Shown here: one piece after another, positions 3,310-62,131 of the stretch
Position numbering within the stretch: the stretch's first letter is position 1
Layout: each line of letters opens with the position of its first letter
Source of the DNA: an uncultured Acidobacteriota bacterium
GTDB taxonomy: Bacteria; Acidobacteriota; UBA6911; RPQK01; JAPXNP01
DNA length: 64,000 bases
Direction of reading: 5' to 3'
Assembly: GCA_963777605.1 (NCBI GenBank)
Contig: CAVZRV010000028.1
Coordinates: forward strand, 32,001-96,000
Program-made: the position numbers and the translations under genes
The notes under the pieces: model-generated
The model's database searches: none
What the model saw: the letters and a program-made list of their open reading frames with translations, nothing else
What the model was told of the DNA's origin: nothing

Positions 3310-4527
3310 TGGACGAATCCGGGCAAACGGCTTCCAGAGCCGCTCCGCTTGGGCCGGCACGTACCCGCACGACCTCATCCCGCGGGCTTCTGCTGCCTCC
3401 CTTTTACCACCCTCAACTCCGCGCGTGGCTGCGTTGCTCCCGGACCGAATATAGCGCTCCCCCGAACTGGGCTACCGGATGCCGCCTCCTTCGATAGATC
3501 CCCTCCCTGCGCTTCCGCTCAATCAACCGCCTCACCGCCATCTCCACTCCCAGTGCGATCCCGTCACTGAATACCCGCTCCCGCGTCGACCAACCCGCAG
3601 CCTCCTTCCGCTCGTCCTCCCGCCACTTCGCCTCCAGTCGTTCCCGGTAGCTCTCGTAAGCCCCCTCCGCCGACACCTGTGTGAAAATCTCCTCAATCGG
3701 GATTAACTCCTCGCCTCTCCCGTGAAACCGCTGCCAGGCCGAAGACCACCTCCACTGCTCGGGCCGTTTCACCACGTGCGCCCGCGTCACATTTGTCTCC
3801 ACATACACCAGGCACCGCTCGAGCCCCGTCCGATCCAGCAATTCCAGACTCTTGAACCGGGCTCCCCAGAAATGCCCGCTTCGCCCGTAGGTCCGGTTGT
3901 ACCATTTGGCATACTCCCCGTTGACGTGTTGCATCAGGGCCGACAGGTCGAACAGCTTCCGGTTAAACCACTGCCAGTCGGCCGCAGTCCAGCCGGCCGT
4001 TTTCGTCCGGGCCTGTTCGCCCCACAACAAGAAGGCCCGGTGCTTCAACTCCCGGCGCGACAAACGGCGAAAGCACTCCATCCAGAGGATGAGGTGATAG
4101 TGCGTGCTCATGAGTTCGAACGCGGCGAGGCGGCAGGAGTAAGCACGGACATAGGCGAAGATCAGGTCCTGCAGCTTCTGGCGGGCAACGGCATCTTTGA
4201 AGGGGAAGAAGGACTGGTGGGAAACGACCCGGGTAATGAGGTGATAGAAGGTGGACTCGGGACTCTTGTGACGGGCTCGTCGCATTGCTTCGACTCCTTT
4301 CCGTTTGACGGTGCACAACCGGCGGAGGGCTCCGCCCCCTGTTTCCCATAACGTTTGAGTTCGCAAATGTGCAAGTCGAAGCCGTCTTGAGGCCGAACAA
4401 TCGCTCCCTGCTCGAAGTCGCGAGAATTCATCCGGAGAGTCTTCAAAAGGAGCAAGCCGGCACGAGATTCCTTGAGTTCAGGACACTTGCAAACAACAGC
4501 CTGAGCCAGAAAAACGAGTCTGTCCCT
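3310..4527 (-). mobile_element. RAYT/Y1-transposase element, copy 1 (1218-bp block repeated at 20560-21777)
   Basis: Direct repeat at offset 17250 with 4 substitutions seen by eye. The shared block ends exactly at GAGTCTGTCCCT. Confidence 0.9.
3413..4285 (-). CDS. Y1 HUH transposase (IS200-like / REP-associated tyrosine transposase family)
   Basis: YHLITR, LMSTHYHLIL (HUH), GHFWGARFKS, LVYVETN (catalytic Tyr position), WRWSS. Start placed at MRRARHK. Confidence 0.88.
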   Translation of the reverse strand: MRRARHKSPESTFYHLITRVVSHQSFFPFKDAVARQKLQDLIFAYVRAYSCRLAAFELMSTHYHLILWMECFRRLSRRELKHRAFLLWGEQARTKTAGWTAADWQWFNRKLFDLSALMQHVNGEYAKWYNRTYGRSGHFWGARFKSLELLDRTGLERCLVYVETNVTRAHVVKRPEQWRWSSAWQRFHGRGEELIPIEEIFTQVSAEGAYESYRERLEAKWREDERKEAAGWSTRERVFSDGIALGVEMAVRRLIERKRREGIYRRRRHPVAQFGGALYSVREQRSHARS

Positions 4528-20559: not shown

Positions 20560-21777
20560 TGGACGAATCCGGGCAAACGGCTGCCAGAGCCGCTCCGCTT
20601 GGGCCGGCACGTACCCGCACGACCTCATCCCGCGGGCTTCTGCTGCCTCCCTTTTACCACCCTCAACTCCGCGCGTGGCTGCGTTGCTCCCGGACCGAAT
20701 ATAGCGCTCCCCCGAACTGGGCTACCGGATGCCGCCTCCTTCGATAGATCCCCTCCCTGCGCTTCCGCTCAATCAACCGCCTCACCGCCATCTCCACTCC
20801 CAGTGCGATCCCGTCACTGAATACCCGCTCCCGCGTCGACCAACCCGCAGCCTCCTTCCGCTCGTCCTCCCGCCACTTCGCCTCCAGTCGTTCCCGGTAG
20901 CTCTCGTAAGCCCCCTCCGCCGACACCTGTGTGAAAATCTCCTCAATCGGGATTAACTCCTCGCCTCTCCCGTGAAACCGCTGCCAGGCCGAAGACCACC
21001 TCCACTGCTCGGGCCGTTTCACCACGTGCGCCCGCGTCACATTTGTCTCCACATACACCAGGCACCGCTCGAGCCCCGTCCGATCCAGCAGTTCCAGACT
21101 CTTGAACCGGGCTCCCCAGAAATGCCCGCTTCGCCCGTAGGTCCGGTTGTACCATTTGGCATACTCCCCGTTGACGTGTTGCATCAGGGCCGACAGGTCG
21201 AACAGCTTCCGGTTAAACCACTGCCAGTCGGCCGCAGTCCAGCCGGCCGTTTTCGTCCGGGCCTGTTCGCCCCACAACAAGAAGGCCCGGTGCTTCAACT
21301 CCCGGCGCGACAAACGGCGAAAGCACTCCATCCAGAGGATGAGGTGATAGTGCGTGCTCATGAGTTCGAACGCGGCGAGGCGGCAGGAGTAAGCACGGAC
21401 ATAGGCGAAGATCAGGTCCTGCAGCTTCTGGCGGGCAACGGCATCTTTGAAGGGGAAGAAGGACTGGTGGGAAACGACCCGGGTAATGAGGTGATAGAAG
21501 GTGGACTCGGGACTCTTGTGACGGGCTCGTCGCATTGCTTCGACTCCTTTCCGTTTGACGGTGCACAACCGGCGGAGGGCTCCGCCCCCTGTTTCCCATA
21601 ACGTTTGAGTTCGCAAATGTGCGAGTCGAAGCCGTCTTGAGGCCGAACAATCGCTCCCTGCTCGAAGTCGCGAGAATTCATCCGGAGAGTCTTCAAAAGG
21701 AGCAAGCCGGCAGGAGATTCCTTGAGTTCAGGACACTTGCAAACAACAGCCTGAGCCAGAAAAACGAGTCTGTCCCT
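20560..21777 (-). mobile_element. RAYT/Y1-transposase element, copy 2
   Basis: Near-identical to 3310-4527 with the same end motif. Confidence 0.9.
20663..21535 (-). CDS. Y1 HUH transposase, identical protein to copy 1
   Basis: Same translation as 3413-4285 in the ORF track. Confidence 0.88.
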   Translation of the reverse strand: MRRARHKSPESTFYHLITRVVSHQSFFPFKDAVARQKLQDLIFAYVRAYSCRLAAFELMSTHYHLILWMECFRRLSRRELKHRAFLLWGEQARTKTAGWTAADWQWFNRKLFDLSALMQHVNGEYAKWYNRTYGRSGHFWGARFKSLELLDRTGLERCLVYVETNVTRAHVVKRPEQWRWSSAWQRFHGRGEELIPIEEIFTQVSAEGAYESYRERLEAKWREDERKEAAGWSTRERVFSDGIALGVEMAVRRLIERKRREGIYRRRRHPVAQFGGALYSVREQRSHARS

Positions 21778-36969: not shown

Positions 36970-39900
36970 TCACCATGAGCCTTTCCCGAAGTTGACGCCT
37001 GCCTTTAGTCTTTCCCAATCAAGCGTCGTGATCCCCACCACTTCAGCGTCCCCTCGTTTGACGGTGTAGTGCACCTGGGTGACCCGGGGCTGGGCGTCAT
37101 TCCCGGATGCCGACCAGTGTCCGTCGATCCCGGAAGGCAGCAGTACCGGGTGATCGGGCGCGACCGCGAGCGGCAGGCCCTGTATCTGGACAAGCCGGCG
37201 GTTGGAGTAGTCGATCAGCTGTGGATCACGGATCTTGCCGATAAAGGAATACTCGGCGGTGACATCGACAGTCGGGTGATAGGAGTTGAGATTGATTTGC
37301 CCGGTGATCTTGACGGTCGTTGTGTTTGTGTACGGCGGCGCGTCCCAGGGATTCTCTTCCTGCTGTTCCGTGAACTCGACGTCGAATTTGAATCCCGTTG
37401 GACTCCCGGTCCAATTCAGCGGGAGGGCCCCGGCGTTCTCCACGCTGACCCGGCCGATCGCGCTTCCGTCCCCGAGCCTAATAGCGGCGCCTTCTGAGTT
37501 GTACTCGTTGAAACTGGGCTCCCAGACCGACGCGCTGAAGCTGCGGTACTCGTCCTTGAGGTACTGCAGAACATCCCCAACCTTGATATCCCCGACCTTC
37601 TCTGACACCCCTCCCACATTGAGCATCACGGTCACTTCATCCTTACCCAACACGCTGTCCGGGACGTAAGGAGAGACCTTGCCGGGTTGCCACTCTGCAT
37701 AAAGCTGTGCCGCCTCACCGTTGAAAGTGACCGAACTCGAGGGGTGCTGCTCTCCAAACCCATCACCCCAACTTGTGACGGGAGACCTCGGCCAGAGCAT
37801 TTCTTGGTCAGGCTGTGTCCAGATTCTGGGCCTGACAATGTAGCGGCCCCATTCGACCCCAACGCTTTCGGAGTAAAGCCAGAGATCACCTGAAATCGCT
37901 TCACTGGGAATGGTGAATCGAATCTCGCTTGGCTCCCATCCCCAGAAGAAGTCGATCTTGAGATCGCCCAGCATGACGTAGCAACGGGAATCTCCACAAT
38001 CGTTACCGAACCCCGTGCCGGTGATCGTGACTTCCTCTCCGATGTGGGCTTCCGGCGGACTGATGGAAGTGATCTCAAACCCGGCCAGAATGTAGAAGGT
38101 TTCGGCTACGACCGGGACGTCCTCCACTTCGACCACCAGGTATCCGGTCTGCGCACCTGCAGGCACGGCGCAGATGATCTCGGTGTCGGTCCAGGTCGGG
38201 CAGGTCGCGGAAGCCCCCCGAAGGAGACAAACCCGGAATCACCAAACCCGCTTCCCGTGATGGTGACCTCATCCCCGATTCGCCCTTCGGACGGAGCGAA
38301 CCCGGTGATCGTCTGGGGAGGCTGGAGCATCGTGAAAGGCCCGGCCGTGACATCGGAGCCGGCCACCCAAACGACCAGGTCTCCGGTGAGGCCGGCCGCC
38401 GGGACCCGGACCTGGAGCTCGGTGTCGCTCCACGAGATGTAGGAGTCGGCGGGGACTCCCCCAAAGCGGACGACGCTAACGCCGCGATTCTCTCCGAACC
38501 CGGTGCCGGCGATCCAGACTTCATCCCCGGGGTAGCCCTGGTGGGGCAGGTAGCCCGCGATCGTGTGAGTCCGCACCGTAAACTGCCCGGCGTCGGCCGT
38601 CTTCCCCTCGACGTTCAGGAGCAGCGCTCCCGTTTTGGCACCGCCGGGGACCCTGCCTCAATTTGGGAGTCGGACCAGGCCGGGTATGCAGTGGCGGGGA
38701 CACCGCCGAAGGTCACGGTACTGCCGCCGCGGACGGCGCCGAAGCCACTTCCCTGGACGGTCACCGACGTTCCGACCGGGCCTTCCCGCGGATCGACGGA
38801 ACTGACCGCCAGCGGTGCCTGGGGTGTCACGCGAGGCCAGACGTTGCCGAAGCGGTCCACGACCGAGACCACGATCTCGTCCTGGCCACTGCCGTCCGGC
38901 AGGGCGTGAGCCTGTTCCGGCCCGGGCCCCAGCGGGATGAGTTCGGCGCCGGGAAGGACCACGCCGTTTCGGTGGATCCGGTACCCCTGGATGTAACCTC
39001 GGGGTATGTCGCCGATTCCCTCCGTCGTCCAGGTGACGGAATCCGGGCTGTGCAGGGTAACACGCGGAGCCAGGAGGAGGTAGAAGGCGATCTGGGTGAA
39101 CACGCCGCTGGTCGTGCCGCTGTTGACGAGCGAGAACTCGAGACCGGTGTTGGGTCCGGTGCTCCCCATGTCGGGAATGGCCAGGGGGGAACTGCGCAAG
39201 TCGCGAAAACCGAGTCCCGAGCTGAGCGGCGTGACCTCGTCATAAGCGGCATCGGCAGTTCCGAGAAAGGGGTATGCCAGCCATTCCAGGGCCCGGTCAG
39301 CCGAAGCGGAGGCATCGATGACGAGGAGGGCCGGGTCCGGGTTGTTCGCCTGCAGGCGGAGGTGCGAGGCGGAAAGGGGGGGCAGGGTCCTTCGGTAGAG
39401 GACGAAGGTGTGCCGGTTCCGGTTGTCGAACGTGAACCGGGGCAGGCCCGAGAGGCTGAGCGTCGCCAGGGTCGCCATCCGGCTCTTGATGGCGCCGTGG
39501 AGTCCTTCGGACGCTTGCGGGGTCTTCAGGATCTCGTCGACGTAGTCCCCGAAGGCCGAGGTCAGGCCGGGTGCTCCGGCCGCCTGGATTCCGGCTCCCA
39601 GGTTGATCAGGTCCGACGTGGAACCGTGTCTCAGGGCAGCGGCGGTCACTTCCGAGCCGGTGCGCAGCTTCAACCAGTCCAGGAAATGAGCCAGGGTGTA
39701 CATGCTGCCCTCGCTGCCGGTCGTGATCGAGACGTCGAGGTACTGGGCGGCGCGGTCGTAACCGAGTGAGGCGGCGCCCCCCTAAAGCTCCATTCTCTCC
39801 GCGTCGCTCAACTGGACGGCGCGGGCTGAATAGTGGTTGGCGGCTGCCTCAACGAACCACTGGTTGTAGACCCACGCGTGCAGGTTAGAGGAATAGTGTT

Positions 39901-40904
39901 GGCCCTGGAGTACGTGAACCAGTTCATGCCCGGCGACGCCGCGCATCTGGTCCCAGGTTCTGAGCTGCTGGTTGCTGATATAGAGATCGCAGAACCAGCC
40001 TCCGCCCAGCTTCGTCTGACCTTCAATTCCGGGTCCGAGGTCTTCGACGCAAGCGCTCATCGGCGCCGATTCGGGGCTGAAAACCCTCGTCCCGCTCGGG
40101 TCGGTGAAGGTCAGGAGCCTGGCGTAAGCGTCGTTGAGGGCGATGTCCAGGTCTTCGATAGAGTCGGGGATGTCCGGATCGCTGGCGTTTCCGGTCCTGC
40201 TGTCCCAGGTGAGATCGTCGAGCACCGCGTCGGAACCGCCGGTCGGGGGGTAGTAGTAAACCTGGAAACTCGATCCTTGGCGATAGGCCGAACGGAGAGA
40301 GGTGTACTTGCGCGCGCGGACCCGGACCCGCTTTTCGTGGGAAGGGCCTGCCTGAAGCGGGATCTCGGTCCCGTCCCGAAGTCCCGCCCCCGAGGCCGCG
40401 GAAAGCGCCGGGTCCAGCTGGAGGTCGAAGAAAAGGGATTGGAGGTCGCTGTCGTACCCGGCCGCGTTTCCGATCGGAACCCAGCGGCTGGTTTCCGGGT
40501 CAAAAGCCTCGGGCGTCAATCGATCCGGTTTCCGAAACCGGCGCCGAAGTCGATCTGCATGACGACCTGGAAGAGCAGTCCGGAGTCTGACTTCAGCAGG
40601 TCGAGGGATGGAGAGAAGGCATGACCCGAACCTTGCCACTTTCACGAACCACATCCAGCCCGTGGTCGAAGAGGACATTCCCAGAAAGGACCCAGTCGTC
40701 CGATTCGACACTGAGTTTCGCCGGGTCATACTCGAGAGTCAGTTGAAGCGCGGAAAGGTCAACCGCTCCATCGATCATCACCGGGACATTGACGGTGGTG
40801 CCGGGAAGCCCGCTGATTTCGGGGACCCTCACCACTGCCTGCCCCAGGGAGGCTGGAACCAGCGACATCACGATCAGCAGGCGTAGCATCGACCTCAAAC
40901 GCAT
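36970..40904 (-). pseudogene. Frameshifted secreted protein: N-terminal cohesin, HExxH+E metallopeptidase-like domain, about five IPT/TIG repeats
   Basis: GLPGTTVNVPVMIDGAVDLSALQLTLEYDPAKL (cohesin); AGHELVHVLQ...WFVEAAA; repeated P.EG.IG.EVTITGxGFG. Five or more ORF pieces. Confidence 0.72.
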
Positions 40905-41120
40905 TCCTCCGGCAAGTTGAGTGTAAAGGCAAATTGGATTTCGATGAAGTGGCTTGGCGAATTAATCTCCGAATGCCGCTGTAGAAGCCACTGGAAATCT
41001 GCGGGAAAGACAGGGAAGACTGTTGAAGCGTAATGACTTGATCCCCATTTCCGGGAGCTCTTCTGAGGGTTGCTGTCGATGGAAAAAAGGAAGTCCTATG
41101 TCGTCGGAAGAACTCGATTT

Positions 41121-41323
41121 GAACAAGGGACAGACTGGTTCCCGCCCAGGCTGTGAACAAGAACAAGGTTCCCGCCCAGGCTGTGAACAAGAACAAGGGA
41201 CAGACTGGTTCCCGCCCAGTGCCGCTGCGGCGGCAACAGGAATCAGCCTGTTTGAATGCATAAGCCGACAGGCGGAATGGTTGGCGATCGGGTCAGTTGC
41301 AGCGACAGCACGAGTCTGTCCCT
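41121..41323. repeat. Tandem 40/30/30-bp units containing the GGGACAGACTG motif, plus an inverted motif
   Basis: GAACAAGG(GACAGACTGG)TTCCCGCCCAG x3, the middle unit lacking the bracketed 10 nt. GAGTCTGTCCCT at 41312. Confidence 0.88.
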
Positions 41324-41499
41324 ATCTAGCAATTTACGGTAACCGCGAGAGAGAAGGGGACGGCCTTCGTGGGAACGACCGGAGCGGACCTGGAGAAGAC
41401 TTTCTCCCACCAGGAAACGCGCATCGTCAAAAACGACACTACGATCAGCTCTCACAACCGGACATCTTGACTTACTGCTGACAATCGCAGCCCGAAACT

Positions 41500-41528
41500 T
41501 TGCAGGAAAATCGCAGTATCATTATAAT
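41500..41528 (+). promoter_or_regulatory. Sigma70-type promoter of mltF
   Basis: TTGCAG-N17-TATAAT in an AT-rich patch, 44 bp upstream of the ATG. Confidence 0.65.
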
Positions 41529-41572
41529 AATAAAATACTTATAAAATTTCCACCTTTTCAGGTCGAGTCTTC

Positions 41573-42925
41573 ATGAGATTCCCCATAGGTCCCTCGCTGC
41601 TCCTCTTTCTGGCCTTCTCTGGCTGTCAGACCCATTCCCGGTTGGAGCCAATCGAACGGGAATTGGTGGTCCTGACCCGGATGGCGCCTACAACGTATTA
41701 CGAAGATCAGAACGGCAATCCGGCCGGTCCCGAATACGATCTGGTCAAAGTGTTTGCCCGGGCGCGAGATGTCCCGGTACGGTTTCAGATCGTGGATACC
41801 ATTGACGAAATTCTCCAGAAGCTGGAGCAGGGCGAAGCCGATCTGGCGGCGGCAGGCCTCACCCTGACTGAATCCAGGTCCGACCGATTCCAGGCGGGGC
41901 CTGCATACCAGGAAGTCTCCGAGATCTGTGTCTGCAGTAAGGCGTCAGAGGTGGATTCCCCCGCAGAACTTGTCGGCGTTCGGCTGGCAATTGGTAAAGA
42001 GAGCAGCTACGAGGAGACACTGCAGAACCTCAAATCCACTATCCCCGACCTGAAATGGACGACGAGAGAACTCTCGACAGAGCAACTCCTTCAGAAGGTT
42101 TGGGAAGAGCAGATTGACTGCACGATTGCGGATTCGAACATTGTGGACATCAACCAGCGCTACTTTCCCGAGATCGAGCGTGCGTTTTCCATCGGCAGCA
42201 AACGCTCCCTGGTCTGGTATATGCCCCAAGGAAGTCCTGTGCCGTCGGAAGAACTCGATCGATGGTTTGAGACACTTCGACAGTCGGGAAGGCTCAGCGA
42301 CATATTGAACCGTTACTACGGCCACATTGATGAATTCGATTATTACGACACCCGGGTGTTCCTCGATCGGATGGAAAGCCGGCTGGAGAAATTTGAGCCG
42401 CTTTTCAGAAAAGCAGCTTCAGACGCCGGATTCCCCTGGCAGTTGATAGCAGCCATCGCCTATCAGGAATCCCAATGGAATCCTGAGGCCACGAGTCCAA
42501 CCGGAGTCCGCGGACTCTTCATGCTGACCCGATCAACCGCACGGGCGCTCGGAGTCGCCAACCGCCTCGACGCGGAGCAAAGCGCGCTGGGCGGAGTCCG
42601 ATACCTCCGACAACTCTTTCAGAGGATCCCGTCATTCATTCAGAGTCCAGACCGTCTCTGGATGGCCCTGGCAGCCTACAACGTGGGATTCTCACACCTC
42701 CAGGACGCCCGTCGACTTGCGATCGACCTCGACCGAAATCCCAACCGGTGGTTTTCCCTCAAAGAGGTGCTGCCCCACTTGACCCAGAAGAAATATTACC
42801 GTCGGCTTCGTCACGGCTATGCCCGAGGTCACGAACCAGTGCTTTTCGTGGAACGCATTCGGCACTATCAAGATCTTCTGACGGAAAAACTCGATCAACA
42901 AGGAGAGTTGGCCGCGCTCAGGTAA
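41573..42925 (+). CDS. mltF: Membrane-bound lytic murein transglycosylase F
   Basis: SBP_bac_3 domain (PTTYY, ADLAAAGLT) plus SLT domain (AYQESQWNP, SPTGVRGLFMLT, ALAAYNVG, GYARG). FSGC lipobox. Confidence 0.93.
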   Translation: MRFPIGPSLLLFLAFSGCQTHSRLEPIERELVVLTRMAPTTYYEDQNGNPAGPEYDLVKVFARARDVPVRFQIVDTIDEILQKLEQGEADLAAAGLTLTESRSDRFQAGPAYQEVSEICVCSKASEVDSPAELVGVRLAIGKESSYEETLQNLKSTIPDLKWTTRELSTEQLLQKVWEEQIDCTIADSNIVDINQRYFPEIERAFSIGSKRSLVWYMPQGSPVPSEELDRWFETLRQSGRLSDILNRYYGHIDEFDYYDTRVFLDRMESRLEKFEPLFRKAASDAGFPWQLIAAIAYQESQWNPEATSPTGVRGLFMLTRSTARALGVANRLDAEQSALGGVRYLRQLFQRIPSFIQSPDRLWMALAAYNVGFSHLQDARRLAIDLDRNPNRWFSLKEVLPHLTQKKYYRRLRHGYARGHEPVLFVERIRHYQDLLTEKLDQQGELAALR

Positions 42926-43028
42926 CTCCAGCAGGCCAAAACCAGTCTGTCCCTTTCTCCACTTCGAACCTCCATGGACTTCACCGTCTCCCGATTTCTA
43001 TTTATGCCAAGTCAGACACAGAACTCTA

Positions 43029-43057
43029 TTGACACAGATTGATAGCCGGGATAGTGT
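43029..43057 (+). promoter_or_regulatory. Possible sigma70-type promoter for the 43256-47961 operon
   Basis: TTGACA-N17-TAGTGT. Confidence 0.45.
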
Positions 43058-43255
43058 CTCTGTGAGAACGAAATCGGCTGGAATACTCCTGTGGCCGACA
43101 CCCGATGGATCGGGACCATTGTCAAAGTCGCCAACCGGGCGTTCTTAAGTCGGTTACGGCTTCAGGATCAGGAAGAAACTTGGGGCTCGTCTCCAGGGAG
43201 ATTCTGATTCTCCCTCCTGCAGCGGCAAATTTCTCTGATATTCGACGGAGGTGCT

Positions 43256-46200
43256 ATGCGACAGATCTTGCGACCGAACCGTCTCTTCACCCTCTGTGCC
43301 CTGGCCATCATGTCACTCGCTGCCCTGGTTCTGATCGGGGCACGATCCCGTCCCTTTGGAGGCGGAGGGCCGGCCACCGTCCAGGCTGTGCTGGAGAGTG
43401 CCCCCTCACCAATTAGAGGAGAATACCTTCAAAAGATTCCGGAATTCCGACGACTTCTCCGGTCACCCGTTGAGATCGGGGAGATTGATCGATTGGCGAC
43501 CCCTCCCGGCTACCAGATCGCGAGCACAGGCGGGCGGATTATCTTCGCCCACATCGCTGACGGCGCCATTCAGGGTACCAACCAGTTCATGCAAACCTCG
43601 ATTACCGTCGTGAATGACTCCACCTACCCCGTCGCAGCCACGCTTCAGTTCTACGAAAATGCCGGAGGAGCACTCACGCTGACAATCGACAAAGTGTCCG
43701 CCTCGAGCTTCAGCTTTTCGCTCGTTCCCGGACAGATGAAGCGGCTGGTGACGTCCGGCACCGGGAGCGTCAAGAGCGGATGGGCTCTGCTTCGTTCCGA
43801 CCAGCCGTTGGCAGCGACCTGCAGCTTTTCCCTTCGCACGACAAGTGGCGGAATCCTGAGCGATGTCGGCGTCGAAGAATCGATCCAGAACACGGAATTC
43901 ACTCTCTTTGCCGATACTCTCGGCAATGCCGACACCGCCATGGCACTCGTCAACCCCGACGAGTCAAACACGGCCAACGTGACACTTGAACTCTACAATT
44001 CAACGGGTGTTGTCAAAGCCAGTACGGCTGTCACCCTTCAGCCCAGGGAGCACCTGGCGAAGTTCGTCACTGAACTCTTCCGCGGAACTTCCGGAATCGG
44101 TGAGTTCGAAGGTTCGCTTGTGGTTCAGAGCAACCGGCCCGTGACAGGAATCACTCTGCGGACCCTGGGCGCTCTCTTGACCTCGGTGCCCATGGTGCCG
44201 GCCCGGAATCCCAGGGATGCCGTCACAGAACTCGACTTTCCTCAAATCGCCGACGGAACCGCTGCCCCGCTCCGGATCGTCACCAGTGTCATTGTCTTCA
44301 ACAATGGAGCCGACCCGATAACGGGGACCCTGGAGTTCATCAAAGCCGACGGGAGCCCAATGGCCGTATCGATCGGCAACCAGACGGCGAGTTCGTTCGA
44401 TTTCAACCTGAATCCGCGAGGGGTGCGTCGCTTTCAGACCCAGGGAAGCGGTGCCCTCAAGACCGGGTGGGCACGGATCACCGCGGACGCCGGGGTTGCC
44501 GGTTCCGCGATCTACCAGATCCAAAATCCGGGGGCAGGCCAGGTCGTTACTGAAGTCGGCGTCAATGCGGCGCCGGGGACCAGTCCGATCAACGCGATTG
44601 CAGATTCGATTGCAGATGCGCGCACCGGTCTCGCTTTGGCAAACCGTAACCCGGATGACTCTACGGATGTAACCATCTCCCTGTACGACGGCAGCGGGGC
44701 AAAGAAGGCGGGGAAGGAGATTACCCTCGAGCCCCTGGCCCAACAGGCTCTGTTCCTGGACGAGTTCTTCAGCGAGGTCTCAGGGATTCAGGAACTGCTC
44801 GGCAGAGTGCTCATCAGTGGCGACGAAGGCACCGTGGCGCTCACCTTGCGCCAGACCGGCCTCCTGACGACTTCGGTACCCACGGTCAACCCGGTTCACG
44901 GCTTCGCCCCCGTCTCGGTTTTCGAGTTCATGCAGACCCTTACGTCGACTTCTCCCGCGGTCAGGTGGCGAATCGAACAGAGCGGGATTGACCTTGGGCT
45001 CAACCAGCTCAGCGCCTCCGCAACTGGCCTTGGGGCAAACCTGAACTTCCCGGCTGGATCTGAACTGGGGTACGGAGTCTACCTGTTGAAATATGGGTCC
45101 GTGATCTCAACGGGAGGCGTAGTCAAGCTCATTTCAACACGAACCGACTCACTGACATTCGACGTAGTGATTTCCGGAGAGAATATCGAGCCGGGTACCG
45201 TGCTGATGTCGGGAAAGATCACAGGGCAGGCGACGGGCAACCTGGTCATCGAACTCGGCCCAACGGGAGCTTCCAACGGCGACTGGAACTATGGTTTCGG
45301 CCTGGAACTGGATCTGCTGCTGCGGGATGGCCTGATCAACGCCCCCACACAAGCGGGAACCAGAACCATCGAAACAGTCTATACGTCGGCCTCGCAGAAG
45401 CTGACGGAGGATGCCGTCCGAATTGTGCGCACGACGACGCAGCCTCAGAGTTTCACGCCTGCAGCCGCGGGTTCGCCCTTCCTGACTTCTTCCCGCCCAC
45501 TCTACACGTCTCCAGGGGGGACCTTTGTGCTGCAGGGAGGGAACTTCGGTGCGGAACCGGATGTAACCTTCAAGCCCGATGGAAGCAGTGACCTGCCAGC
45601 GTTCTTCCCGACACTTGTTGATCAGGGGCTCGAGGTCTATGTTCCTACCGCCGCTCAAGCCGGAACCGTCCAGGTCTTCAATGGGCAGTCGGCTTCGAAC
45701 CAGCTGAAAACGCTGACCATCTACAGCCCGACAATGACGCTGGTCAAGGCAGCCGGATCCTCGGGCGACTCGTTTACAATTGACCTGACCTCCAGCCAAT
45801 CTCCGGTCCAGCTTGGCCTGGCAACGTTCCAGCTTTCACTTTTTGGAGCAGCATGGCCCGAGGTACAGGGCGCTGCGGGATCGGTCGTCGGATCTTTCAC
45901 AATCACGGGGGAAGCCCAGGCTGGACAGGCGGAGCAATTCGACGTCAGGCTCGAATCGAACCAGGCCGAGTCGATCAGCCTGGCCGTCCTGGAAGAGGGG
46001 GAAACGGATCCAGCTGGTCGGATCACCCTGTCCAAGGGAACGGGCACTTCGTCGGACGGAATTCTTCTGTTCTACGCTCCGCTGACCCTCAGCGACATCC
46101 CAAGAGTCAACGGATTCCCCACCTCTTTGGAGTTAGTCCTTGACGGCCTGGTTTTTGCCCCGTCAACGGCCGGATCCGAGGTCTACTGGGCTGCCGAGTC

Positions 46201-48325: not shown

Positions 48326-48435
48326 AGTCTGTCCCTTTTTTGCCAAGAAGAATTGAGGATGAGCCTGTCCCTTTTTGCTTGTTCGAAAACGAGCCTGTCC
48401 CTTGTTCGAGCTTTCGAGGACGAGTCTGTCCCTTT
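48326..48435 (+). repeat. Four direct AGYCTGTCCCTT copies with unique intervening sequence
   Basis: Copies start at 48326, 48362, 48392 and 48423 (periods 36, 30, 31). Confidence 0.88.
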
Positions 48436-48517
48436 TTGGGAAGAGGGGGGCGATGGCTCGACCGGGATGCGTGCCGCTACGGGTGCTTCTCTGTGGCGGA
48501 GTCGGGGGCCGGGAGAG

Positions 48518-51500
48518 TCACTCGGACTGTTCCATCAACGACTTTGCAAGTTGGACGGCGTCGGCCATGTCGATCTTCCCGTCTCCATTCACATCTGCTC
48601 GTTCAGCAGGTGAAGGTTCGGGGCCGACACCCTGGAGGAAGCGCAGGATTGATACCAGGTCGCGCACGTCGAGTTGGTCGTCCCGGTTGAGGTCGCCGGG
48701 AACGATCGGCCGCGGAGTCGAATCAGCCAGCAGCGGGTCCGAACCCTTGTCGACCTCTTCGCCGTCGCCATAGCCGTCACCGTCGGAATCGGATGCCGAC
48801 GGGTTGCTCCCGATCAGCGATTCCGTCAGGTTGTCCAACCCGTCGCCGTCGTTGTCCTGATCGCTGTCGGCACGGTCCGGATCGAGGTCCGAGTGCCTCC
48901 TCGTATCCGTCAGGCAGAAGGTCCCCGTCCCGGTCGGCGTCGAGCAGAACGGGCAACACCACTTCGGAGAAACCGGGGATGTAGACCGACCCGTCGGACG
49001 ACCGAAGCTGGACCTGCAGAACGAGCTGTCCCAGCGTCTCGGGGCCGTTGAAGTTCACCGTCCACTCGAGGATGTTCGTCGCTCCGGCTGCCAGCGTTGG
49101 CAGGTCGCGGATCTGGTTCGAGTACACCACATCCGGGCCCAGTCCCGGAACGACGAGCTGAGCCGACAGCCCTCCGGCAGGAATGTTACTGAGATTTGAA
49201 ATGGATGCCCGGAGAGTGATTGCTGCCGGCACCCGGTTCAGAGTCGAGGTCGGTTGCCCCTCGGACAGCACGTCAACCGACTTGATCAGAACCGTAGCGG
49301 AAAGCTTCCCCTGTCCGTCCAGGTCAGTTCGAAACGCCTCCAGTTGGCTGACGTAAGCCGTGATCCCGGCTTCAAGTTCCTGGAGGCTGGCCAGGACGGA
49401 ATCCCGACGCACGGAATAGTCCGCTTCAGAGAGGATCCCGGCATTAAACACGAACCCCGTCAGACCCATGATCTTCCCGGCCACCGTCACCCGCAGGCTC
49501 AAGGAGGAATCGAAGAGCCCGGCATAACGGTCATTGAAACCCGGATCGTTGATCAGTTCACCGAGGCCGCTCAAAAGGGGCGCCTCCGCGACGCGAAGCT
49601 GAGCCTCGAACTGACCGGCCAACGGAAACAGGTCACCGGAGAGGTGATCGACCAGATCGTCAAACCGGTCCTGACGAATCAGGGAAGCGGCGGTGTCGAT
49701 GCTCTGGGCTAATTCCGCCTCAACCTGCGCGGTCTGCCGGGAAACACTCTCATGGACCCGAGCCGGAGGCCGTAACCCGGCTCTACTGGAAGTCGACTGG
49801 TGAACCTCCTTCTGGAAACTGGCCCAGTTGAAATGCCCGGGGAGAATTGCCTCCCACTCCCGCATGAGACCGACGTAGCGGCCCAAGAGGTCAAAGAACC
49901 GAACTCCCTTTCCAGCCTTCTCAAGAAGCGCAAGTACAGCGGCAAATTCCGAGAACGCGGCCCCCGCAATAAAAAGCACCGCCGCCGCTCCGGAGCAGCA
50001 ACCGCAGAAGCTGCGGCCAGAGAGGTGCCGATGAACTCCGACTTCACCTTTACCTTCTCGGTTGACGCTGAGGGCCGAGGACAGGAAATCTCTCCACCGA
50101 TGCGAGCTTCTGCTGGGTGAGGCGGCCGGAGAGTTGGATTGCCGAGAGGACGGTATTCGCTTCTTCCGGGAGACGGTCGCCGTTGGGACTGAAGATCGCG
50201 GCCGTTTCCACGGCCTTCCGCAATGATCCCTGGGTCTGCCAGGCAAAGTGGGCAGCCAACATCAGGCGAAACAGGTCGAGTCTCTCGGCACCTGCCTTGA
50301 CAAAGTTCGCCGGGTACTGATCCATGGCGCCGAGAACAAACAGCGTATTGAGAAACTCGTAGCGTGGCCGGATCCCCGGCACCTGCCAGAAGGTTCTTCT
50401 CCGACCATCCTCCTCAACTCGTTGGTATACTTGCCACTAGAATTCTCCGCGGCGGCCACGAGATCCGTGGCTGCATCACGACGGACCGACGATCCACGAA
50501 TCGGAATATCTGCCGCTGATCTTGTTGAACTGGCCTTTGAGCCCCTTGGCCAGCTTCTCGTTGAGTTTCCCCAGATTCACCAGATCGGCCAAGCAGGTCG
50601 ACGATGACCGCCTCGAGTTGATCGCTCATCTAGTCGGCATCGGCGGCGATGCTTCGGGCAGCACCGATCGCCAGCCAGAGCCGGTAGAGCCGCTCGTCAG
50701 TCGGTGTCGGTTCAACGGGGAAGGACTGCGCTAGGGCGATCGCGGCGGCGACTTCGTCGGCGTAGGGGCTCGTCCCAAGCTTGTCGATGAAAGGAAAGTT
50801 GAAACCTGCCACTCGGTCCACGTCGTAGACCCCGAGATCGCGCAAGGGTCCGGCAAGGTTGATCACGGCCTGCCGACGGTTGACGACTCCCATCTCGATC
50901 TTGGGAAGTTCCGCGTCGTCTTCAGAGACCGCTGCGGCCAGGCCGGCCGGTTCGCGCACCCCTTCGGCATCGGCCGGGGGTTCAGCATCGAAGGTATAAA
51001 CGCCGGGAGAGAGCGGAAGTTCGTAGATCCCGAAACTGTTAGACAAGTCGGTCGCAGTCTGTCCCTCGGCGCTCTCGGCGGTCACACGGACCAACTCGAG
51101 CGGGATCTCGGGACTGGACCCGAGAATCACGACCTTGCCCTTCCGAGAGACGCTGTACTGCTTCTGGTCGTCGGCCAGCAGGACCTCGCCCCCCGAACCG
51201 GTGTCGAAAAGGGAAGCGACGACCCGGATTCCGGTGACCGCCTCGGGGATGATGACACGGGTAACGGGATCGACCGTTCCGGACCCGCGGTTGACCGGCC
51301 ACTCGTAGTTGGACAGCTCGGGAATCGGGGGCAGGATCGCACCCGACTGGTCCTTCACGTCCACCCGAATCAGCCCGTGGTTAGTATCTCGGACCAGGTT
51401 GTACGCGACGTCCAGGTCGAACGCGATCTCCTCCCCCTTGGTCAGGGAGAGACCGGTCGGGGATCGATCGAGTCGATGCGAATCCGCTCGATCTGGTACT

Positions 51501-54500
51501 CGACTGACGGATCGGTCAGCGTTTCACCGCCGGAGCCCGACACGAGCAGGGCATCTACCGAGAGGAGATTGGTGTCGTTCGGGACGTCGAAGCTCACTTC
51601 GAAATCGACCGTCCCCAATCCCTCGCTCACGAATTCGAACGGCGGATCGACCAGAAGCTGCCCGTCCCCATGACGGATCTGAAGTTCGACCCGGCCCTGC
51701 GAGCCACCCGTCATCCGGTATCGGACCGTCGCATTGACCGTGACAGACTCGCCTCCCGTGAGCGGCGACTCGGGGTCGGGCGTCAAATCCAGAAACTCGA
51801 CGCTGTCCTCCCGCAGGTAGTGAAGCGGAAGCGAGATGGCGGTGATGTCGGCTGCACTGTCGGGCAGAAGCATGGCTACAACCGAAACGCTGCTGATCTC
51901 TTCCGTGACGCTCTGGGCCACAAGCGAGGCAAACTGGGCGACGGTTGCGGCGGATGTGACCGGCTGGGAAGCCTCCCCCAGCACCAGGTCGATATTGTTG
52001 TCCCTGAACACTCGAACGAAGAGAGTCCCAGAATCGTCGCTGGTCAACTCGTAACGGACGGAGAGGTTCGAGAAAGTGACAGTCCCGTCGGCCCCAACCA
52101 CTGGAAATCCGGAGGAAGCGTCGGGCGAGATCGAAAGGAACTCAACGGTGTCCTGAGGCTGGGCCACACAATTCGAGAACTCGGAGGTATTGTTATCCGG
52201 GTCGGTGGCTGTGGCAGTGAGGAAGTCACCGGCGTATGGAGAATCGAATTCCACATGTCCAGTAGCATCGGTAGTAACCGTCAGAGAACCCAGAAAATCC
52301 TGCCCCTCGCCATAGCCGGAAGGGTCACACGCGGCGTTTGAAAAGAACTGGATCCGGAACTGCGTATCGGGGCGGCTGTCGAGCGTCCCCCGGACGCCGC
52401 CAGGGCTGAAAGTCAGGACCGGGAAGTTCTGGCCTCAGGTTCCCATCCTGATCGTCCCAGTCATCATTTCGCGCGACCCCAGGCACGCCGGTATCTATCC
52501 CTAACCCCCCGTTCGCGAAGATGCTGTTGGTGAGGACGCCATTGCCTTCAGTGTCGCTGCCAAAGATCGAAACACCGGCCTTCCCGTTGAAACCGACAAT
52601 GTTCCCTTTGGCGGAATCCTCACCTCCCACCAAGGAATTCAAGCCAGTTAGCGCGACTCCCTCGAATAAGTTGCCAAGTGCGGTTCCGTCCAACCCGACG
52701 CCGATTCGATTGGACTGGATCGTGTTCCCACCGCCACTGAGACTTGTCGCGAGGATTCCCCTCTCAAGGTTCGAGGCAATCACGTTGCCGGCGCCTGGTG
52801 CCCCGATCACAACGTTGGTAGTCCCAGTTCCAATCCGAATCCCATCACGGCCATTTCCCCAAGCGAGGCTGCCTGTCAGATCTGTCCCGATATGGTTGCC
52901 CAGGATGAAGCTTCCAGGGCTTCCCGAGAGGTTGATACCGTCATAGGCCGCTGCCGCAACTATGTTCCCGAGGCCTTCACCCTCCCCGCCGATCGTACCC
53001 GGGGACCCGCTCAGCTCAATGCCATAGCTCCCGTTCCCAAGGGCGGCCGTCCCTAACGCGTCGGTCCCGACGAAGTTTCGTTGAATCAGCACTACGGAGG
53101 AGTCGATGACTTTGACCCCAGTTCCCTTAGTGGCGGAAACAACATTTCCCGAGCCAGGGGCCGCTCCCCCAATGGTGACTCCGTTGCTGTTTCTGATGTA
53201 GAGGCCGAGGTTCCATCCTAAAGGGGTATCTCCAGCATCGTCCGTTCCAACGAAGTTGTTTCGGATAGCAAGGTCTGAGGCCGAGTCTATCGAGATGGCA
53301 GTGCCGCGAAGCGTGTTGGCAAACACGTTTCGGCTTCCATATCCGAGTCCACCGATTGTGACTCCTGAAGCGGCCGCCACTTCGGAGCCGGACGGAAAAA
53401 TCCTGATCCCCTGATAGAGACCTCCCAGTACTTCGCTGCCGGTGGGATCCAGCCCGAACCAGTTGCCGAGAAACTCGATGTCCCCCGAGGTTTCTTTCCA
53501 GACAACAATACCGTCGCCGTTGCCTACAATCAGATTTCGGGCCGGCTCAACGGTTCCACCGATCACCACCTCGCGCACGTCATCGAGGCGCATGTCGGCG
53601 TCATCCACCTGGGTTGCGGTGGCGTCAGTGCCGACGTAATTGCCTTCGAACAATACGTCCGTGGTCTCCTTGACGATGACACCGGACCCTTCCCAAAGCG
53701 CCAGGCCGCGGACCACTGTGCCTCCAGAGTAAACCGCGATGTACGTCTGCATGTCGACGATGCCGCCGGAAGTCGTTCCGTCAATAACCGCACCTTCGCT
53801 CAAATTCGGGATCGGTCCTCCAGGAAGAACCTGCGTCACGGAGAAGTGGATGGCATCGAGTCCGGGGCTGGCATTCGACTCGTCAATCGCCGCCCAGAAG
53901 GTGCACTGATCGCCCGGGTCACTCGAGGAATCGCACCTGCCGTCTCCCTTCTTGTTGTCCCGCTCGTCGCTGGACCGATTGACCGTAAAGGTCCAGAACC
54001 GGGGTTGTTTCCGCAAAGCTCAGCCCCACGGGACCCCGTGAGAGGAGAACCCAGTCATCGAGGCTGTCCGGAGTCAAACGCATGGGGACCATCGCCACGG
54101 CAGCCTCGCTCAGAGAGAATGATGTGGACGCGAACTCTGGTGGAGAGGTTTCGCTCGAGGCCCGGGCTTGGATACCGCCCGCGCCCATGAAAACCTGGAC
54201 CTGGCCCAAGTCCGGCCCCATGAGGACCAACTCGTTTCGGGGCGAAGTCGAGAGGTTTCCCGCAGACAGTCGAAGATGACCCGGCTCACCTCGACTAGCC
54301 GCAAGAACGGCGGTCCCGGCAGGCAACTGAAGCAAAGGCTTCTCCCAAAACTCTCCAGATTTCCGATCGAAAGCCAACTGGCGAATCTCGCCCCGGGCGG
54401 TAAGTACCGCCAACTCCTTGCGGAAGTCCCCCGTGAAGTCTCCAACCGCCAGATCGATGGCCTCGGTCGGCATCGGAACGCTAATGAGGGTCGGCGACCC

Positions 54501-55429
54501 AGCCTCCGACCGGTAGCGAGCCGGGATCGAGAGCTCCCGGTCTCTCCGGATGATGCTGACCTCAGACCCGGCGGCCACTGCCAAGTCAATCGGGAAATCA
54601 CCGTCCAGGGCTCCGAGGGCAAGAGCCGAGATCCGGCTCGGAAATCGAATCTCTTCGGGTTCCTGGCGAAGGGCACCGCGGGGGCTTTGGAAAACGAGGA
54701 CGGTCGCTCCTCCTCTGCCGTCGATTCCCACCACGAGATCCGCAAGGCCGTCACGGCGGTTGACCTCCCCGCTGACGAGTGCGGTCACAACACCCGGAAG
54801 CTCAACCCGTTCCGGAGCGCCGAATCGTCCATCCCCTGAACCGGGCATCAGGAAAAGAGCGGCCTCGTCCGTGGCTACTACGACGAGATCGAGGTGCCAT
54901 CAGCATCGAAGTCGCCCGCAGCCATGAAGTTGGGAACGACAGGCGAGGACTGCACCATCGCCCCGGGCTCAAACGGGGTATCGGTGAAGACGCCCTCGGC
55001 CTTCCTTCGGAGTGCCTCCCGGCTGTTGGGATAGACCGCATCGACGCTCCCGCGGTGTAGAGCAACAATCCCACCATCCGGCCCGCCATACCCGCAAACG
55101 AGGTCGGGCATACAGTCCTCGTCGGAAATATCCCGACGTCAATGACAACGGATCGACCGATTGTGATGAAAGAAGAAACCGGAACGCGGGCTTCCCTTCG
55201 TACTCGGCTTCGACCGGCCGGCTCGACTGAAGGTTAATCCAGGGACGGCCCTGACCCATCGCACGGAGAACGGCGGAGGAAAGCTCTCCTCCGGACTTGC
55301 CCCAGCCAGACCCGTCCACAAGAAGGAAGAAGAAGGCAAAGGCAGAACCGCCCGGCAATCTTCGTCATCAAACTCGATCCGCCGCCGATCCGGCTCTTCT
55401 TTCTCCTCCGGCCGTTGTATCATGATCAC
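48518..55429 (-). pseudogene. Giant secreted protein, frameshifted as sequenced: FG-GAP module, CSLREA/beta-helix, Ig-like domains, helical region, DxDxDG Ca-binding repeats, C-terminal dockerin
   Basis: About eleven ORF pieces. GDFDADG, NRRDGLADL, CTFWAAIDESN, GNxIGTD repeats, NTSEFS, DSDGDGYGDGEE; C-terminus PGDLNRDDQLDVRDLV...ADVNGDGKIDMADAV. Start overlaps the upstream stop (ATGA). Confidence 0.8.
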
Positions 55430-58400: not shown

Positions 58401-58617
58401 CCAAACCGATCGATACGCCGTCGTGCGAGAACCCGATCCCTCGCCTGCCCGCCCGCGCCAGGAAGAGGTAGTTCAAATCCACCTGTCCGCGATTCGCTTC
58501 GAAGGTGAAGTCCCGCTGCCGGATCGCCTTCCGAGCAACCGACAGGGCGACCGCCTGGCTCCAGACGCAAGACGCCAGGAGCAGCGCGATTGCCGGCAGA
58601 CTGTTCTGCGCCCTCAC
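55426..58617 (-). CDS. SBBP beta-propeller repeat protein + cohesin + C-terminal FPQ domain
   Basis: FEANRGQ...IYPGVD...DP head; about seven STYLGG...G.T.S.DFP repeats; APPGSTAIVPVRI...FTLAFNPDLL (cohesin); FPQVANG...NTGIALAN...LLTTFPV. Confidence 0.88.
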   Translation of the reverse strand: MRAQNSLPAIALLLASCVWSQAVALSVARKAIRQRDFTFEANRGQVDLNYLFLARAGRRGIGFSHDGVSIGLGGSKEGVQLQFVGSEPSSGPRGVEKTAARSHYFRGRTPEEWHTGVPHFRRLVYRDIYPGVDAWFYSRDGELEYDLTLEPFGDLSQVEMRVEGADLLELDEDGNLLIRQGDRVLVQSPPVVLQEGRTGVPGTFEIRGRQSYGFRIPDRNLEQKLTVDPVIRLSTYLGGSASESIRSVALDSDGNIFVVGDTYSDDFPTLDPVQSEKRDRPGFYSSDVFIAKYSPGGGELLFATYLGGDREEYGWELAVGPDGTPYVAGTTKSADFPLVKPIQSDINQGPVVGSRDGFITRLSSDGSRILFSSYLGGSSDDNIEGIQVDPSGNIYLAGYTRSADFPTSNALKAGLDGDYDGFATKLAPGGSSVRFSTYYGGSGLDLFLALSLDGSGNLCLGGLTESTDFPVSGAAQPASGGGRDGTVVKISSSGGQVLFSTYLGGGSQDEIRGIDRGPDGSIYLTGFTGSDDFPVTAGATVFDREGYENAFLSRLSSSGNQLLYSTYLGGGGQTWAFAVRVGDDGQAYLAGFTNSNDFPTVSPLKAAKAPGTSDGFIAVFSSDDPPSVLFSSSFGGDTGDPSSSSEDISDLDVDGAGNIYLVGRTNSTDFPVRDAVQATYGGTDDGFLTILEPTRVALSVGTASAPPGSTAIVPVRIEGGDGVSAFRFTLAFNPDLLSVPASRVVSAGDLAGNHTLSYSIEANRITVAGFSSGLDTLSGSEGVLANVTLRLDGGVPVGTAVAFNLVGADVSDAAGNSLVPGLSGGSVIASESLPPPSAGQNEIVFPQVANGQFAGGSFVTTLVFVNRSEADAVGEIEFFRSDGSPFALTLTDSRTGSSFDLEIPAAGALFLQTDGLGELASGYAPVSSTVPLGGTLIFTAVKPDGSSSSETAVGVSPVGKAFTLPLLVGGGSNTGIALANVSSAGAEVSLTLLDPDGETLETTVQDLSAGRHQALFATELFDSLTGQADFEGRIEVTSPTPIAVVALKQEGILLTTFPVLEPK

Positions 58618-59795: not shown

Positions 59796-60372
59796 GAACA
59801 GTTCCAGCTCGTCGCGGTGACGATTTACCTGCTCGGACCCCAATTCATTCAAACAATCGGATAAGAATGCGGTCAGTCTAGCGGACGCAGAAGGAATCCA
59901 CCAGTATTTACCTGGAAATTCAATTGAAAGAGGTGGATAACTTGGACAATCTGGAAATTTGGAGCTCTGTTGCCGGGATTGCCATTGGAGCCAAAGCTAA
60001 CTCGTCTTTCCGTGCAAAATCCGTCAGCGGGCACACGAAACCCCCGGGCAAAGCCTCCGGCGGGGGCCAAACCCCTAACCCCATCCAGTAATTACGAACG
60101 TGTCGGAAAAAGTGCGAAGAAGCCCCGTAAAGAAAGGAAAAAGACGGCAAAGGCCCCGCTTTTGAAGGCATTGGCAGCGAAGGGGCCACCGGGGAGAAAG
60201 GATGCAGAAAAAATCCAGGGCGAGACGCTTCTCTGCCCGAGTTTGGAGACCACACCCCAAGGTCTGGCGTTCGCCCTCTCCCCCAGTTCGGAGGCTTCCC
60301 GCCGGAACGACCAAAGCAAACTTCAGCCTCCCGGTGATCCACCTCGCAGTCACGTTTCGGTATGAATTGAGA

Positions 60373-61446: not shown

Positions 61447-61752
61447 CCCAGAAAAGTACCACCAGGTTCTCCGACGCACAACCGCTAACCGGCACTTACG
61501 TCGGCGCCGACCTCCGAATTTCCGAGTCCCAAGCCGGAGGGTCCCCGGCAGTGCCATATCATTCAAAAAGCGCGACTTGGCCCGCCGTACCCGGGGACGT
61601 GGCTTCGCCTTACCCCCGGCTCTGTGTGCAGCGCCATCCTTTTGAACTCACCCCCTTCTCCAGCACCGAATAGATCCAGCCCCCATAAAAGACTTCCGCT
61701 CAACATCGGGCAATCCCTTGATGACGCCACCTCCCGATTCCCGGATTCTGCT

Positions 61753-62131
61753 TCACCGGTGGGACTTCTTCGCGGCGGCTTTGACCAGCATCTCTTCAAC
61801 TCGAAACCTCACAATCCTGGCGATCAGTTCAAATGGAATCGGTCGATCGAGGGGGAACTGAACCGCGCCCTTGGACCACTTGTAGTCAGTGAACTCGTCC
61901 TGGAAGTTCCGGATCCCGGAGGGGGTCGGGTAGAACCCGATGTGATTCTTGTGCGCCGCGAAGTGCACCAGATTTCCGTGCAGGGTGAAGGTCGGCATCT
62001 GGTAGCTGATGGTTTCTCTCGGCATCGGGCGCCGCCTTCCGGATCGTTTCGCCTGATCTCCGTCAAGATTTCCTGGATGGTCCGGTGGGAAACCGTCAAT
62101 GTACCCATCGATGGTCATGGGGGGATTTCAT
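61753..62131 (-). CDS. DUF1801 / YdhG-like iron-chaperone family protein (frameshifts in the 5' part)
   Basis: TIDGYI...ETISYQMPTF...LVHFAA.KNHIGFYP...SKGAVQFPLDRPIP. Confidence 0.85.

Follow-up and report, generated by a model that had tools for sequence, protein, structure and literature searches.

The closest described counterparts of the locus analyzed here are short bacterial repeats that accompany genes for Y1/HUH proteins. REPtron/RAYT systems were reportedly described by Nunvar et al. in 2010. In the related TIRtron arrangement, RAYT-like genes named TIRYT lie between terminal inverted repeats (TIRs) that share the consensus GGGGWSAS, and the TIRs are also found as single copies, dimers, and clusters; that study singles out a distinct Acidobacteria group (Di Nocera et al. 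2013, PMC3733652). The TIR lists and the TIRYT alignment that accompany this publication may hold the motif dealt with below. For TnpA-REP, a biochemical study reports that the enzyme cuts single-stranded DNA beside the repeat in vitro and remains attached to the repeat-side fragment through a 5'-phosphotyrosine, and that the cleaved repeat can then receive, on its 5' side, an unrelated oligonucleotide with a 3'-OH (Corneloup et al. 2021, PMC8266576). According to the same study, the TnpA-REP enzymes of E. coli, Stenotrophomonas, and Marinomonas cut at CT or CA dinucleotides. Scraps of genes at the edge of a repeat are not described in the excerpts of PMC3733652 and PMC8266576, and may be described elsewhere in print.

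The window (the whole 64,000-nt stretch of Acidobacteriota DNA that we analyzed) carries two copies of a Y1/HUH gene that encode identical RAYT/TIRYT-like proteins, and both copies are bracketed by inverted repeat units (Table 1). The gene sits in a 1218-nt duplication (20560-21777 = 3310-4527), the boundary of which falls 1 nt outside the repeat core, on the 5' side. The protein scored 28.3 bits against Pfam Y1_Tnp (cut-off 23) and 25.8 bits against NCBIfam REP_Tyr_transpos, below the cut-off of 80; a search of PDB sequences returned no match at E<=1. Its translation contains HYH at residues 89-91 and a Y-x3-N stretch followed by WRWSS, which we take to be the family motifs of a Y1 protein. 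It is a distant member of this family, and the named relatives of its gene come from an uncultured Acidobacteriota genome.

We also inspected 29 loci with homologues of the Y1 gene in related genomes. The motif was present within 1.5 kb at 11 of these loci and absent from 18. Inverted flanking by the motif was seen at four of the 29 (L036, L038, L039, and L041), and at L037, in genome G004, a four-copy motif array lies just upstream of the homologue. The repeat unit belongs to this Y1/HUH transposase-like gene family.

A profile built from 34 sites defines a 22-nt non-palindromic unit, ARAAA-GGGACAGRC-TSNTTYTC, with conservation stopping at position -5. The same 34-site profile revealed neither a GTAG tag nor a stem-loop inside the unit; because the tag and a hairpin of its own are both missing, the unit does not qualify as a strict REP, which is a palindrome tagged with GTAG or CGTC. 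Compared with the published TIR consensus, the core form GGGGACAG fits GGGGWSAS and is found in genome G021 and at 10 of the 34 sites here, and AGGGACAG is the form at most of the others. For the string GGGACAGAC, we counted 15 copies in the window, where about one is expected, and 84 in the whole genome, where about 76 are expected. The longer string RGGGACAGRCT is present in 41 copies genome-wide, 33 of them within the first 100 kb of this contig, with background density elsewhere.

In three related genomes, counts of the motif exceeded those of a reversed control (88 versus 17 in G004, 38 versus 4 in G021, and 87 versus 26 in G057). Genomes G004, G057, and G060 are rich in the repeat, with 69-88 copies. 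It forms long palindromic doublets in G021, where hairpins arise only from two inverted units, and same-orientation arrays with an irregular spacing of about 25-80 nt in G004. Spacing at the present locus is irregular as well (70 and 30 nt). Together, the repeat and the Y1 gene match the described TIRtron/TIRYT kind.

The repeat units of interest are found in a 668-nt intergenic region (40905-41572) between a divergent row of minus-strand genes and mltF. The latter gene scored 509 bits against the NCBIfam model for MltF (NF008112, cut-off 354), and its product has the Pfam domains SLT and SBP_bac_3. In total, the region contains four repeat units and a broken transposase relic. Three of the units form an array, the middle one of which (41155-41184) lacks the 10-nt core; the fourth stands alone in reversed orientation, the 5' side of its core at 41314 pointing toward the transposase relic, 7 nt off.

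The relic itself was recognized by comparison with a locus of genome G006 that encodes a 391-aa transposase with an HTH_28 domain and an IS481-type leucine zipper. Positions 41330-41462 share 83% DNA identity with that gene over 133 nt with no gap, and the 43 codons at 41333-41461 are 77% identical at the amino acid level to transposase residues 295-337. The adjoining stretch 41456-41483 matches the final 28 bases of the G006 locus, which lie about 380 nt further along there. No intact copy of the relic's transposase was found in this genome.

Table 1. Features of the window discussed in the text (coordinates count from the first base of the window)
Feature	Position	Strand	Remarks
Y1/HUH (RAYT/TIRYT-like) gene, copy 1	3413..4366	-	317 aa; flanking motifs at 2986 (+) and 4518 (-)
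Y1/HUH gene, copy 2	20663..21616	-	identical protein; flanking motifs at 20434 (+) and 21768 (-)
First ORF of the divergent row	40593..40904	-	cohesin-domain start
Patch, left half	41070..41086	+	17-nt reverse complement of mltF 42185-42201, 16/17 identical
Patch, right half	41087..41118	+	32-nt direct copy of mltF 42228-42259, 30/32 identical
Array of three repeat units	41121..41219	+	GGGACAGAC cores at 41127-41135 and 41197-41205
Solo repeat-unit core	41314..41322	-	reversed relative to the array
Transposase relic	41330..41483	+	DNA and amino acid similarity to the G006 locus
Sigma-70-like promoter match ahead of mltF	41499..41528	+	10/12; consensus scan only
Weaker sigma-70-like match	41552-41524	-	9/12; consensus scan only
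mltF, membrane-bound lytic murein transglycosylase F	41573..42925	+	450 aa; NCBIfam NF008112 and Pfam
Template stretch in mltF	42185..42259	+	codons about 205-229
Repeat-unit core past mltF	42945..42953	-	20 nt past the mltF stop codon

The original prediction placed a 32-nt copy of an internal mltF segment beside the array. Our comparison reproduced both the coordinates and the identity of this match, on the same strand, and the copy indeed ends 2 nt ahead of the first repeated 29-nt unit (41121) and 8 nt ahead of the first GGGACAGAC core (41127). Beyond what had been predicted, a second, inverted piece of 17 nt directly abuts the 32-nt copy. The complete patch therefore measures 49 nt, an inverted piece followed by a direct one, as established by pairwise comparison on the assembled contig (Table 1). 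The templates of the two pieces fall within a single 75-nt stretch of mltF, and the 26 nt that separate them in the gene are absent from the patch. The patch lies 166-214 nt upstream of the start codon of the first ORF in the divergent row, with CTGAGGG bordering it on the left and TTGAACAAGGGACAG on the right. A comparison of the bases at 41069/41070 and 41118/41119 gave no microhomology at either junction, and the inverted and direct pieces meet within AAAAAA, with no overlap.

That a match of this length would hardly arise by chance had been proposed as well, and our controls agree. When the whole intergenic region was searched against the 6.73-Mb genome with blastn-short, the 32-nt match was the sole hit that was neither self nor motif (E 1.5e-5). 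When the intergenic region was shuffled 200 times and compared with both strands of the surrounding ±10 kb, the top-scoring 32-nt windows had 19-24 matches, versus the 30 observed. The inverted piece has an alignment score of 29, which none of 500 shuffles reached (shuffle maximum, 27). Searches of both orientations of the 668-nt region with a word size of 7, gapped local alignment, and tblastn turned up no further similarity to mltF.

Three other candidate features were considered and set aside. A longer inverted homology (CCGGGAGC versus CCAGGGAGC, with an 11-nt gap) was dropped, as gapped local alignment did not recover the pairing. A pseudo-motif in mltF, GAGACAC, located 9 nt past 42259 and matching GGGACAG at 5 of 7 positions by eye, was judged too weak. 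A diversity-generating retroelement was rejected on the grounds that the two differences in the direct piece are not both at adenines and that the match is too short.

A direction of copying can be assigned from the only real orthologue locus of mltF that we found among 40-60 related genomes of the order. This orthologue, in G014, shares 72% amino acid identity with mltF, and the codons homologous to both patch pieces are ordinary, in frame, and conserved there. For this reason, in terms of sequence, mltF is the template and the patch is the copy. DNA similarity between the window and the G014 locus is limited to mltF (41650-42894, 74%). The region of about 220 nt upstream of the G014 gene differs from the one here and contains no copy of the patch.

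No close relatives were found in 60 related genomes, in metagenome contigs, or in public runs, the best metagenome relative of mltF being 51% identical. One public set of RNA contigs yielded a single contig of 157 nt, matching 42002-42151 only, with a fraction of 0.05 of the sampled words present.

The patch and the gene differ at 3 of 49 nt. Each of the three differences is a transition, the patch having A or T where the gene has G or C; two of them fall in the direct piece (41098 A versus 42239 G and 41101 T versus 42242 C). The G014 orthologue sides with mltF at two of the three sites and with the patch at one. This pattern fits a copy that would be drifting under AT-biased mutation, the sites being few (n = 3).

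Taken together, these features lead us to regard the patch as probably a non-functional, two-piece templated insertion, copied at the DNA level from mltF. The strand switch inside the patch is expected from template switching and not from a simple duplication or transposition. We propose a single accidental event in which a break or nick at the 5' edge of the repeat unit, or close to it, would have left a 3' end. This end could then have been extended on ectopic single-stranded mltF DNA 1.1 kb away, the template changing from one strand to the other, after which rejoining of the DNA would have sealed the patch into a junk-rich intergenic region. The Y1 nuclease may have made the nick; given an insertion of this kind, we hold its involvement to be a real possibility that on balance seems doubtful. 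The patch itself presumably lacks a function.

To our knowledge, two-piece templated insertions with a strand switch and a template a kilobase away have seldom been documented in bacteria. Templated insertions record how breaks or nicks get mended, and the patch would be one small mutational scar of this sort in an intergenic region rich in mobile elements.

An ORF of 127 codons (41098-41481, within a long open frame at 41023-41481) begins at an ATG inside the patch that is preceded by AAGGAAG. Its GC3 is 0.50, compared with 0.64-0.77 in six neighboring genes, and it matches no Pfam or NCBIfam family. The two copies of the 29-nt repeat inside this ORF are 70 nt apart and are consequently read in different frames. 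We rejected 41098-41481 as a gene because of the low GC3, the out-of-frame repeats, and the missing family match, and annotators should be warned that this ORF, which starts in the patch, is not a gene. An Rfam search of 38000-45000 at E<=1 gave nothing relevant (one irrelevant snoRNA match at 44696), and no unusual folding of 41040-41250 was detected on either strand (z -0.86 and -1.88).

The original prediction had interpreted the copy as spacer-like capture of neighboring DNA by motif-associated machinery. One part of this claim stands: the patch is a copy of neighboring DNA, it lies at the 5' edge of a unit, and a Y1/HUH machinery is linked to the motif. The idea of a regular or repeated capture did not stand. 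A BLAST search of ±200 nt around all 34 motif sites against the genome disclosed no second short gene scrap; its hits comprised a 970-nt copy, the duplication with the Y1 gene, a contig that is a near-duplicate, a further repeat family, and three matches of 19-24 nt that were marginal, contrary to what had been expected of the other motif-flanking segments. Local copies (exact matches of at least 14 nt within 5 kb, motif excluded) accompanied 3 of the 34 motif sites, representing two loci, versus 30 of 600 random windows. As there is no enrichment at motif sites, the nearness of the patch to the motif could be a coincidence.

The most far-reaching form of the capture idea is a programmed, CRISPR-like acquisition in which motif arrays store DNA spacers for defense or regulation. 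The length of 32 nt is typical of a spacer, the copy adjoins an array of a repeated motif, and the arrays of G004 do have variable segments between their motifs. When the three G004 arrays were examined, however, these segments had no matches outside other arrays and a second repeat, itself found at some 25 or more places, the exception being one marginal spacer-only match (E 0.075). The G004 arrays are mosaics of repeats and not stores of captured genes. At the present locus the repeat stands on one side of the patch only, the spacing of units is irregular, here and in G004 alike, and the copied DNA comes from an essential-type gene of the cell itself, 1.1 kb away. A Pfam scan of 39 ORFs of the window disclosed no cas-like family, and the flanks of the 34 sites were equally devoid of further scraps. 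We regard CRISPR-like acquisition as largely refuted and its remaining probability as minute.

Could the patch instead serve a purpose as antisense RNA? It would then lie in the minus-strand leader of the divergent gene row, or in a small RNA, and pair with mltF mRNA at 42228-42259 to tune its stability or translation. The predicted pairing of a minus-strand patch RNA with the mRNA amounts to -58.4 kcal/mol, compared with a mean of -23.2 and a best value of -35.9 in 300 shuffles, and a G-U pair would form at one of the two mismatches; such pairing, however, follows automatically from any copy. The sole minus-strand sigma-70-like match (Table 1) lies upstream, and a leader of about 610 nt starting there would span the patch. 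Against this, the consensus scan gave no promoter-like match near the patch itself, and terminator-like sites on the minus strand (41194-41168 and 41217-41198) stand upstream of it in the array, their number being two versus a shuffle mean of 3.2. The patch has no Rfam family and no unusual fold, the inverted 17-nt piece is given no role, and the differences from mltF resemble AT-biased drift. An antisense role thus appears distinctly unlikely.

Somewhat different evidence bears on the patch as the last relic of a decayed second copy of mltF, which we also consider unlikely. Both pieces come from one short mltF stretch, the direct piece retains the reading frame of the gene (tblastn, 45% over 22 aa, E 0.069), and a GGGAGC hexamer 36 nt upstream shares the 1141-nt offset with a GGCAGC in mltF. 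A decayed copy, however, does not account for the inversion of one piece and the loss of the 26 nt between the sources, and the rest of the 668-nt region offers no further mltF similarity. Moreover, the sharp edge at which 94% identity gives way to random sequence is unlike the decay of a pseudogene.

Chance similarity or an assembly artefact is highly improbable. The shuffles, together with the adjacency of two pieces, exclude chance. The patch is known from an assembled contig alone, in an assembly of 53 contigs with an estimated contamination of 5.68%, and a near-duplicate contig of 13.7 kb (C26, 97.7%) indicates strain mixing. A mis-join is nevertheless disfavored, as a chimera would give exact copies and the patch has 3 substitutions in 49 nt and an inverted 17-mer.

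The distance from the end of the foreign DNA to a core, on the 5' side of that core, is 8 nt at the patch, 8 nt at the 970-nt copy, and 7 nt at the relic at 41330; for the patch, this puts the end 2-3 nt outside the conserved unit. The 970-nt copy (2009-2977) shares 99.6% identity with its source 3.3 kb upstream and stops 8 nt ahead of the core at 2986, the source continuing beyond the point where the copy stops. The copy derives from an IS91-like element, of which it contains Zn_Tnp_IS91 and the beginning of Y2_Tnp, and elements of this type have a rolling-circle mechanism that can itself give rise to truncated copies. Given this IS91-like origin, the independent junctions number two or three, two of which share the intergenic region of the patch. 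No cleavage-site signature was found across the three junctions, where the last foreign bases are GAT, CAG, and TTG.

One may nonetheless read the patch, the relic, and the 970-nt copy as in vivo footprints of the Y1 nuclease, which would nick single-stranded DNA 7-8 nt 5' of GGGACAGRC. Occasionally, the nick would be resealed onto a 3' end that was foreign or that had been extended on templates nearby. We hold this reading to be doubtful, with a small chance of being correct. If it were true, it would provide the natural counterpart of the strand transfer seen in vitro and a route by which arrays gain variable segments between repeats, and a patch from a neighboring gene could be co-opted as an antisense leader. 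What might be novel at this locus is that two or three junctions coincide in lying 7-8 nt 5' of a core; should this coincidence hold, it would mark where a little-studied branch of the HUH nucleases cuts in vivo and would suggest how their repeat arrays turn mosaic.

Finally, we compared the locus with known systems. As in CRISPR, a piece of other DNA of about 32 nt adjoins a repeated motif. In contrast to CRISPR, bracketing repeats, regular spacing, cas genes, and further spacers are absent, and the source is a neighboring host gene. A closer likeness is offered by template switching. In FoSTeS/MMBIR-type events and short-range template switching, insertions are pieced together from nearby DNA; most documented cases are eukaryotic, and quasipalindrome template switching occurs in E. 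coli. The patch likewise consists of pieces of nearby DNA, one of them inverted. Unlike in short-range template switching, its template is 1.1 kb away and not tens of bases, and microhomology is missing. In Salmonella, Shyamala, Schneider and Ames (1990) reportedly found REP sequences where chromosomal duplications were joined. There, as here, short intergenic repeats coincide with the junctions of rearrangements, and the Salmonella events differ from the patch in that recombination between two REP copies gave large tandem duplications.

The system as a whole most resembles TIRtrons and REPtrons, in which, as here, a Y1/HUH gene stands between inverted short repeats; like the repeats of TIRtrons, the unit here also occurs alone, paired, and clustered between genes. 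It departs from both in that 33 of 41 copies cluster within about 100 kb of sequence surrounding the two copies of the gene and are not spread genome-wide, and its gene departs from RAYT genes in falling under the NCBIfam RAYT cut-off (25.8 versus 80). As regards the junctions, the bases are unconserved here, unlike at the cutting sites of TnpA-REP, the enzyme is only distantly related, and data from the test tube are being set beside data from sequence alone. In the placement of the joined DNA the two agree: as far as the excerpts of PMC8266576 describe the strand transfer by TnpA-REP, it puts foreign DNA on the 5' side of the repeat, and at the present locus foreign DNA lies directly 5' of the unit.

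We found that roughly 100 kb around the two copies of the Y1 transposase-like gene (the 64,000 nt of the window and the preceding 32 kb, corresponding to positions 1-100000 of the contig, C28) holds 33 of the 41 genomic copies of RGGGACAGRCT, the longer form of the motif. Across the remainder of the 6.7-Mb genome, the density of this sequence is that of the background. The cluster could be a genomic island, or a repeat family that has arrived recently or acts locally. C28:1-100000 has further repeat families in common with many contigs of the assembly, and the region is therefore not a binning error.

Within this region, a direct duplication of 970 nt (99.6% identity) links window positions 2009-2977 with C28:30747-31715 (L152:1247-2215). 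The duplicated segment contains downstream DNA in addition to the 3' portion of a pseudogene for an IS91-like transposase, with Zn_Tnp_IS91 and the beginning of Y2_Tnp. Only 8 nt separate the end of the copy at 2977 from a motif core, and both copies start with AGATAGG, which resembles the 5' part of the motif. A near-duplicate of window 48490-62191 is found on a separate 13.7-kb contig of the same assembly (C26; 97.7% identity), which represents either another strain or another copy of this stretch. At one end, the C26-like stretch stops 58 nt short of a motif array; at the other, divergence sets in 25 nt from a motif core.

A broken transposase next to the motif was also observed in a relative, G014. 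There, a truncated transposase of the same family as the HTH/IS481-leucine-zipper relic at 41330 abuts a three-unit motif array (L136:1400-1560, minus strand), and the join between the two lies within a CTGGAG that they share. The pairing of a broken transposase with the motif is therefore present in two genomes.

Other features of the window are listed in the table below. The four-copy array has GAACAAGGGACAG in common with the array at 41121. A frameshift seems to have split the gene that opens the divergent row: its 103-codon ORF, whose product covers only positions 3-76 of the 139 in the cohesin-domain profile (the first half), overlaps the following 315-codon ORF in a different frame. The TOTE conflict system gene adjoins copy 1 of the Y1 gene.

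Additional features located in the window
Feature	Position	Strand	Remarks
Four-copy motif array, same orientation	48327-48432	minus	~85 nt downstream of the end of a dockerin-like gene
First gene of the divergent row	39782-40904	minus	Apparently frameshifted
945-codon protein (TOTE conflict system)	4767-7604	+	AEP-TOTE primase, ResIII helicase, and DUF559 domains

Arrangements of the motif were also noted in two relatives. In G021 (L019-L023), it is arranged as near-perfect palindromes of ~80 nt in the order GGGAAATGT-GGGGACAGACT-stem-loop-AGTCTGTCCCC-ACATTTCCC; at least 11 palindromic pairs occur among the matches listed, five of which were inspected. No Y1 homologue was found in the G021 genome at E ≤ 1e-10. 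In the arrays of G004 (L015:1067-1103 and many other loci), the motif is interspersed with another repeat, about 30 nt long (GGAAGGTAAGCG...GCTTGCC-like), which occurs in at least 25 places. These arrays of the two repeats have a mosaic architecture resembling that of BIMEs.
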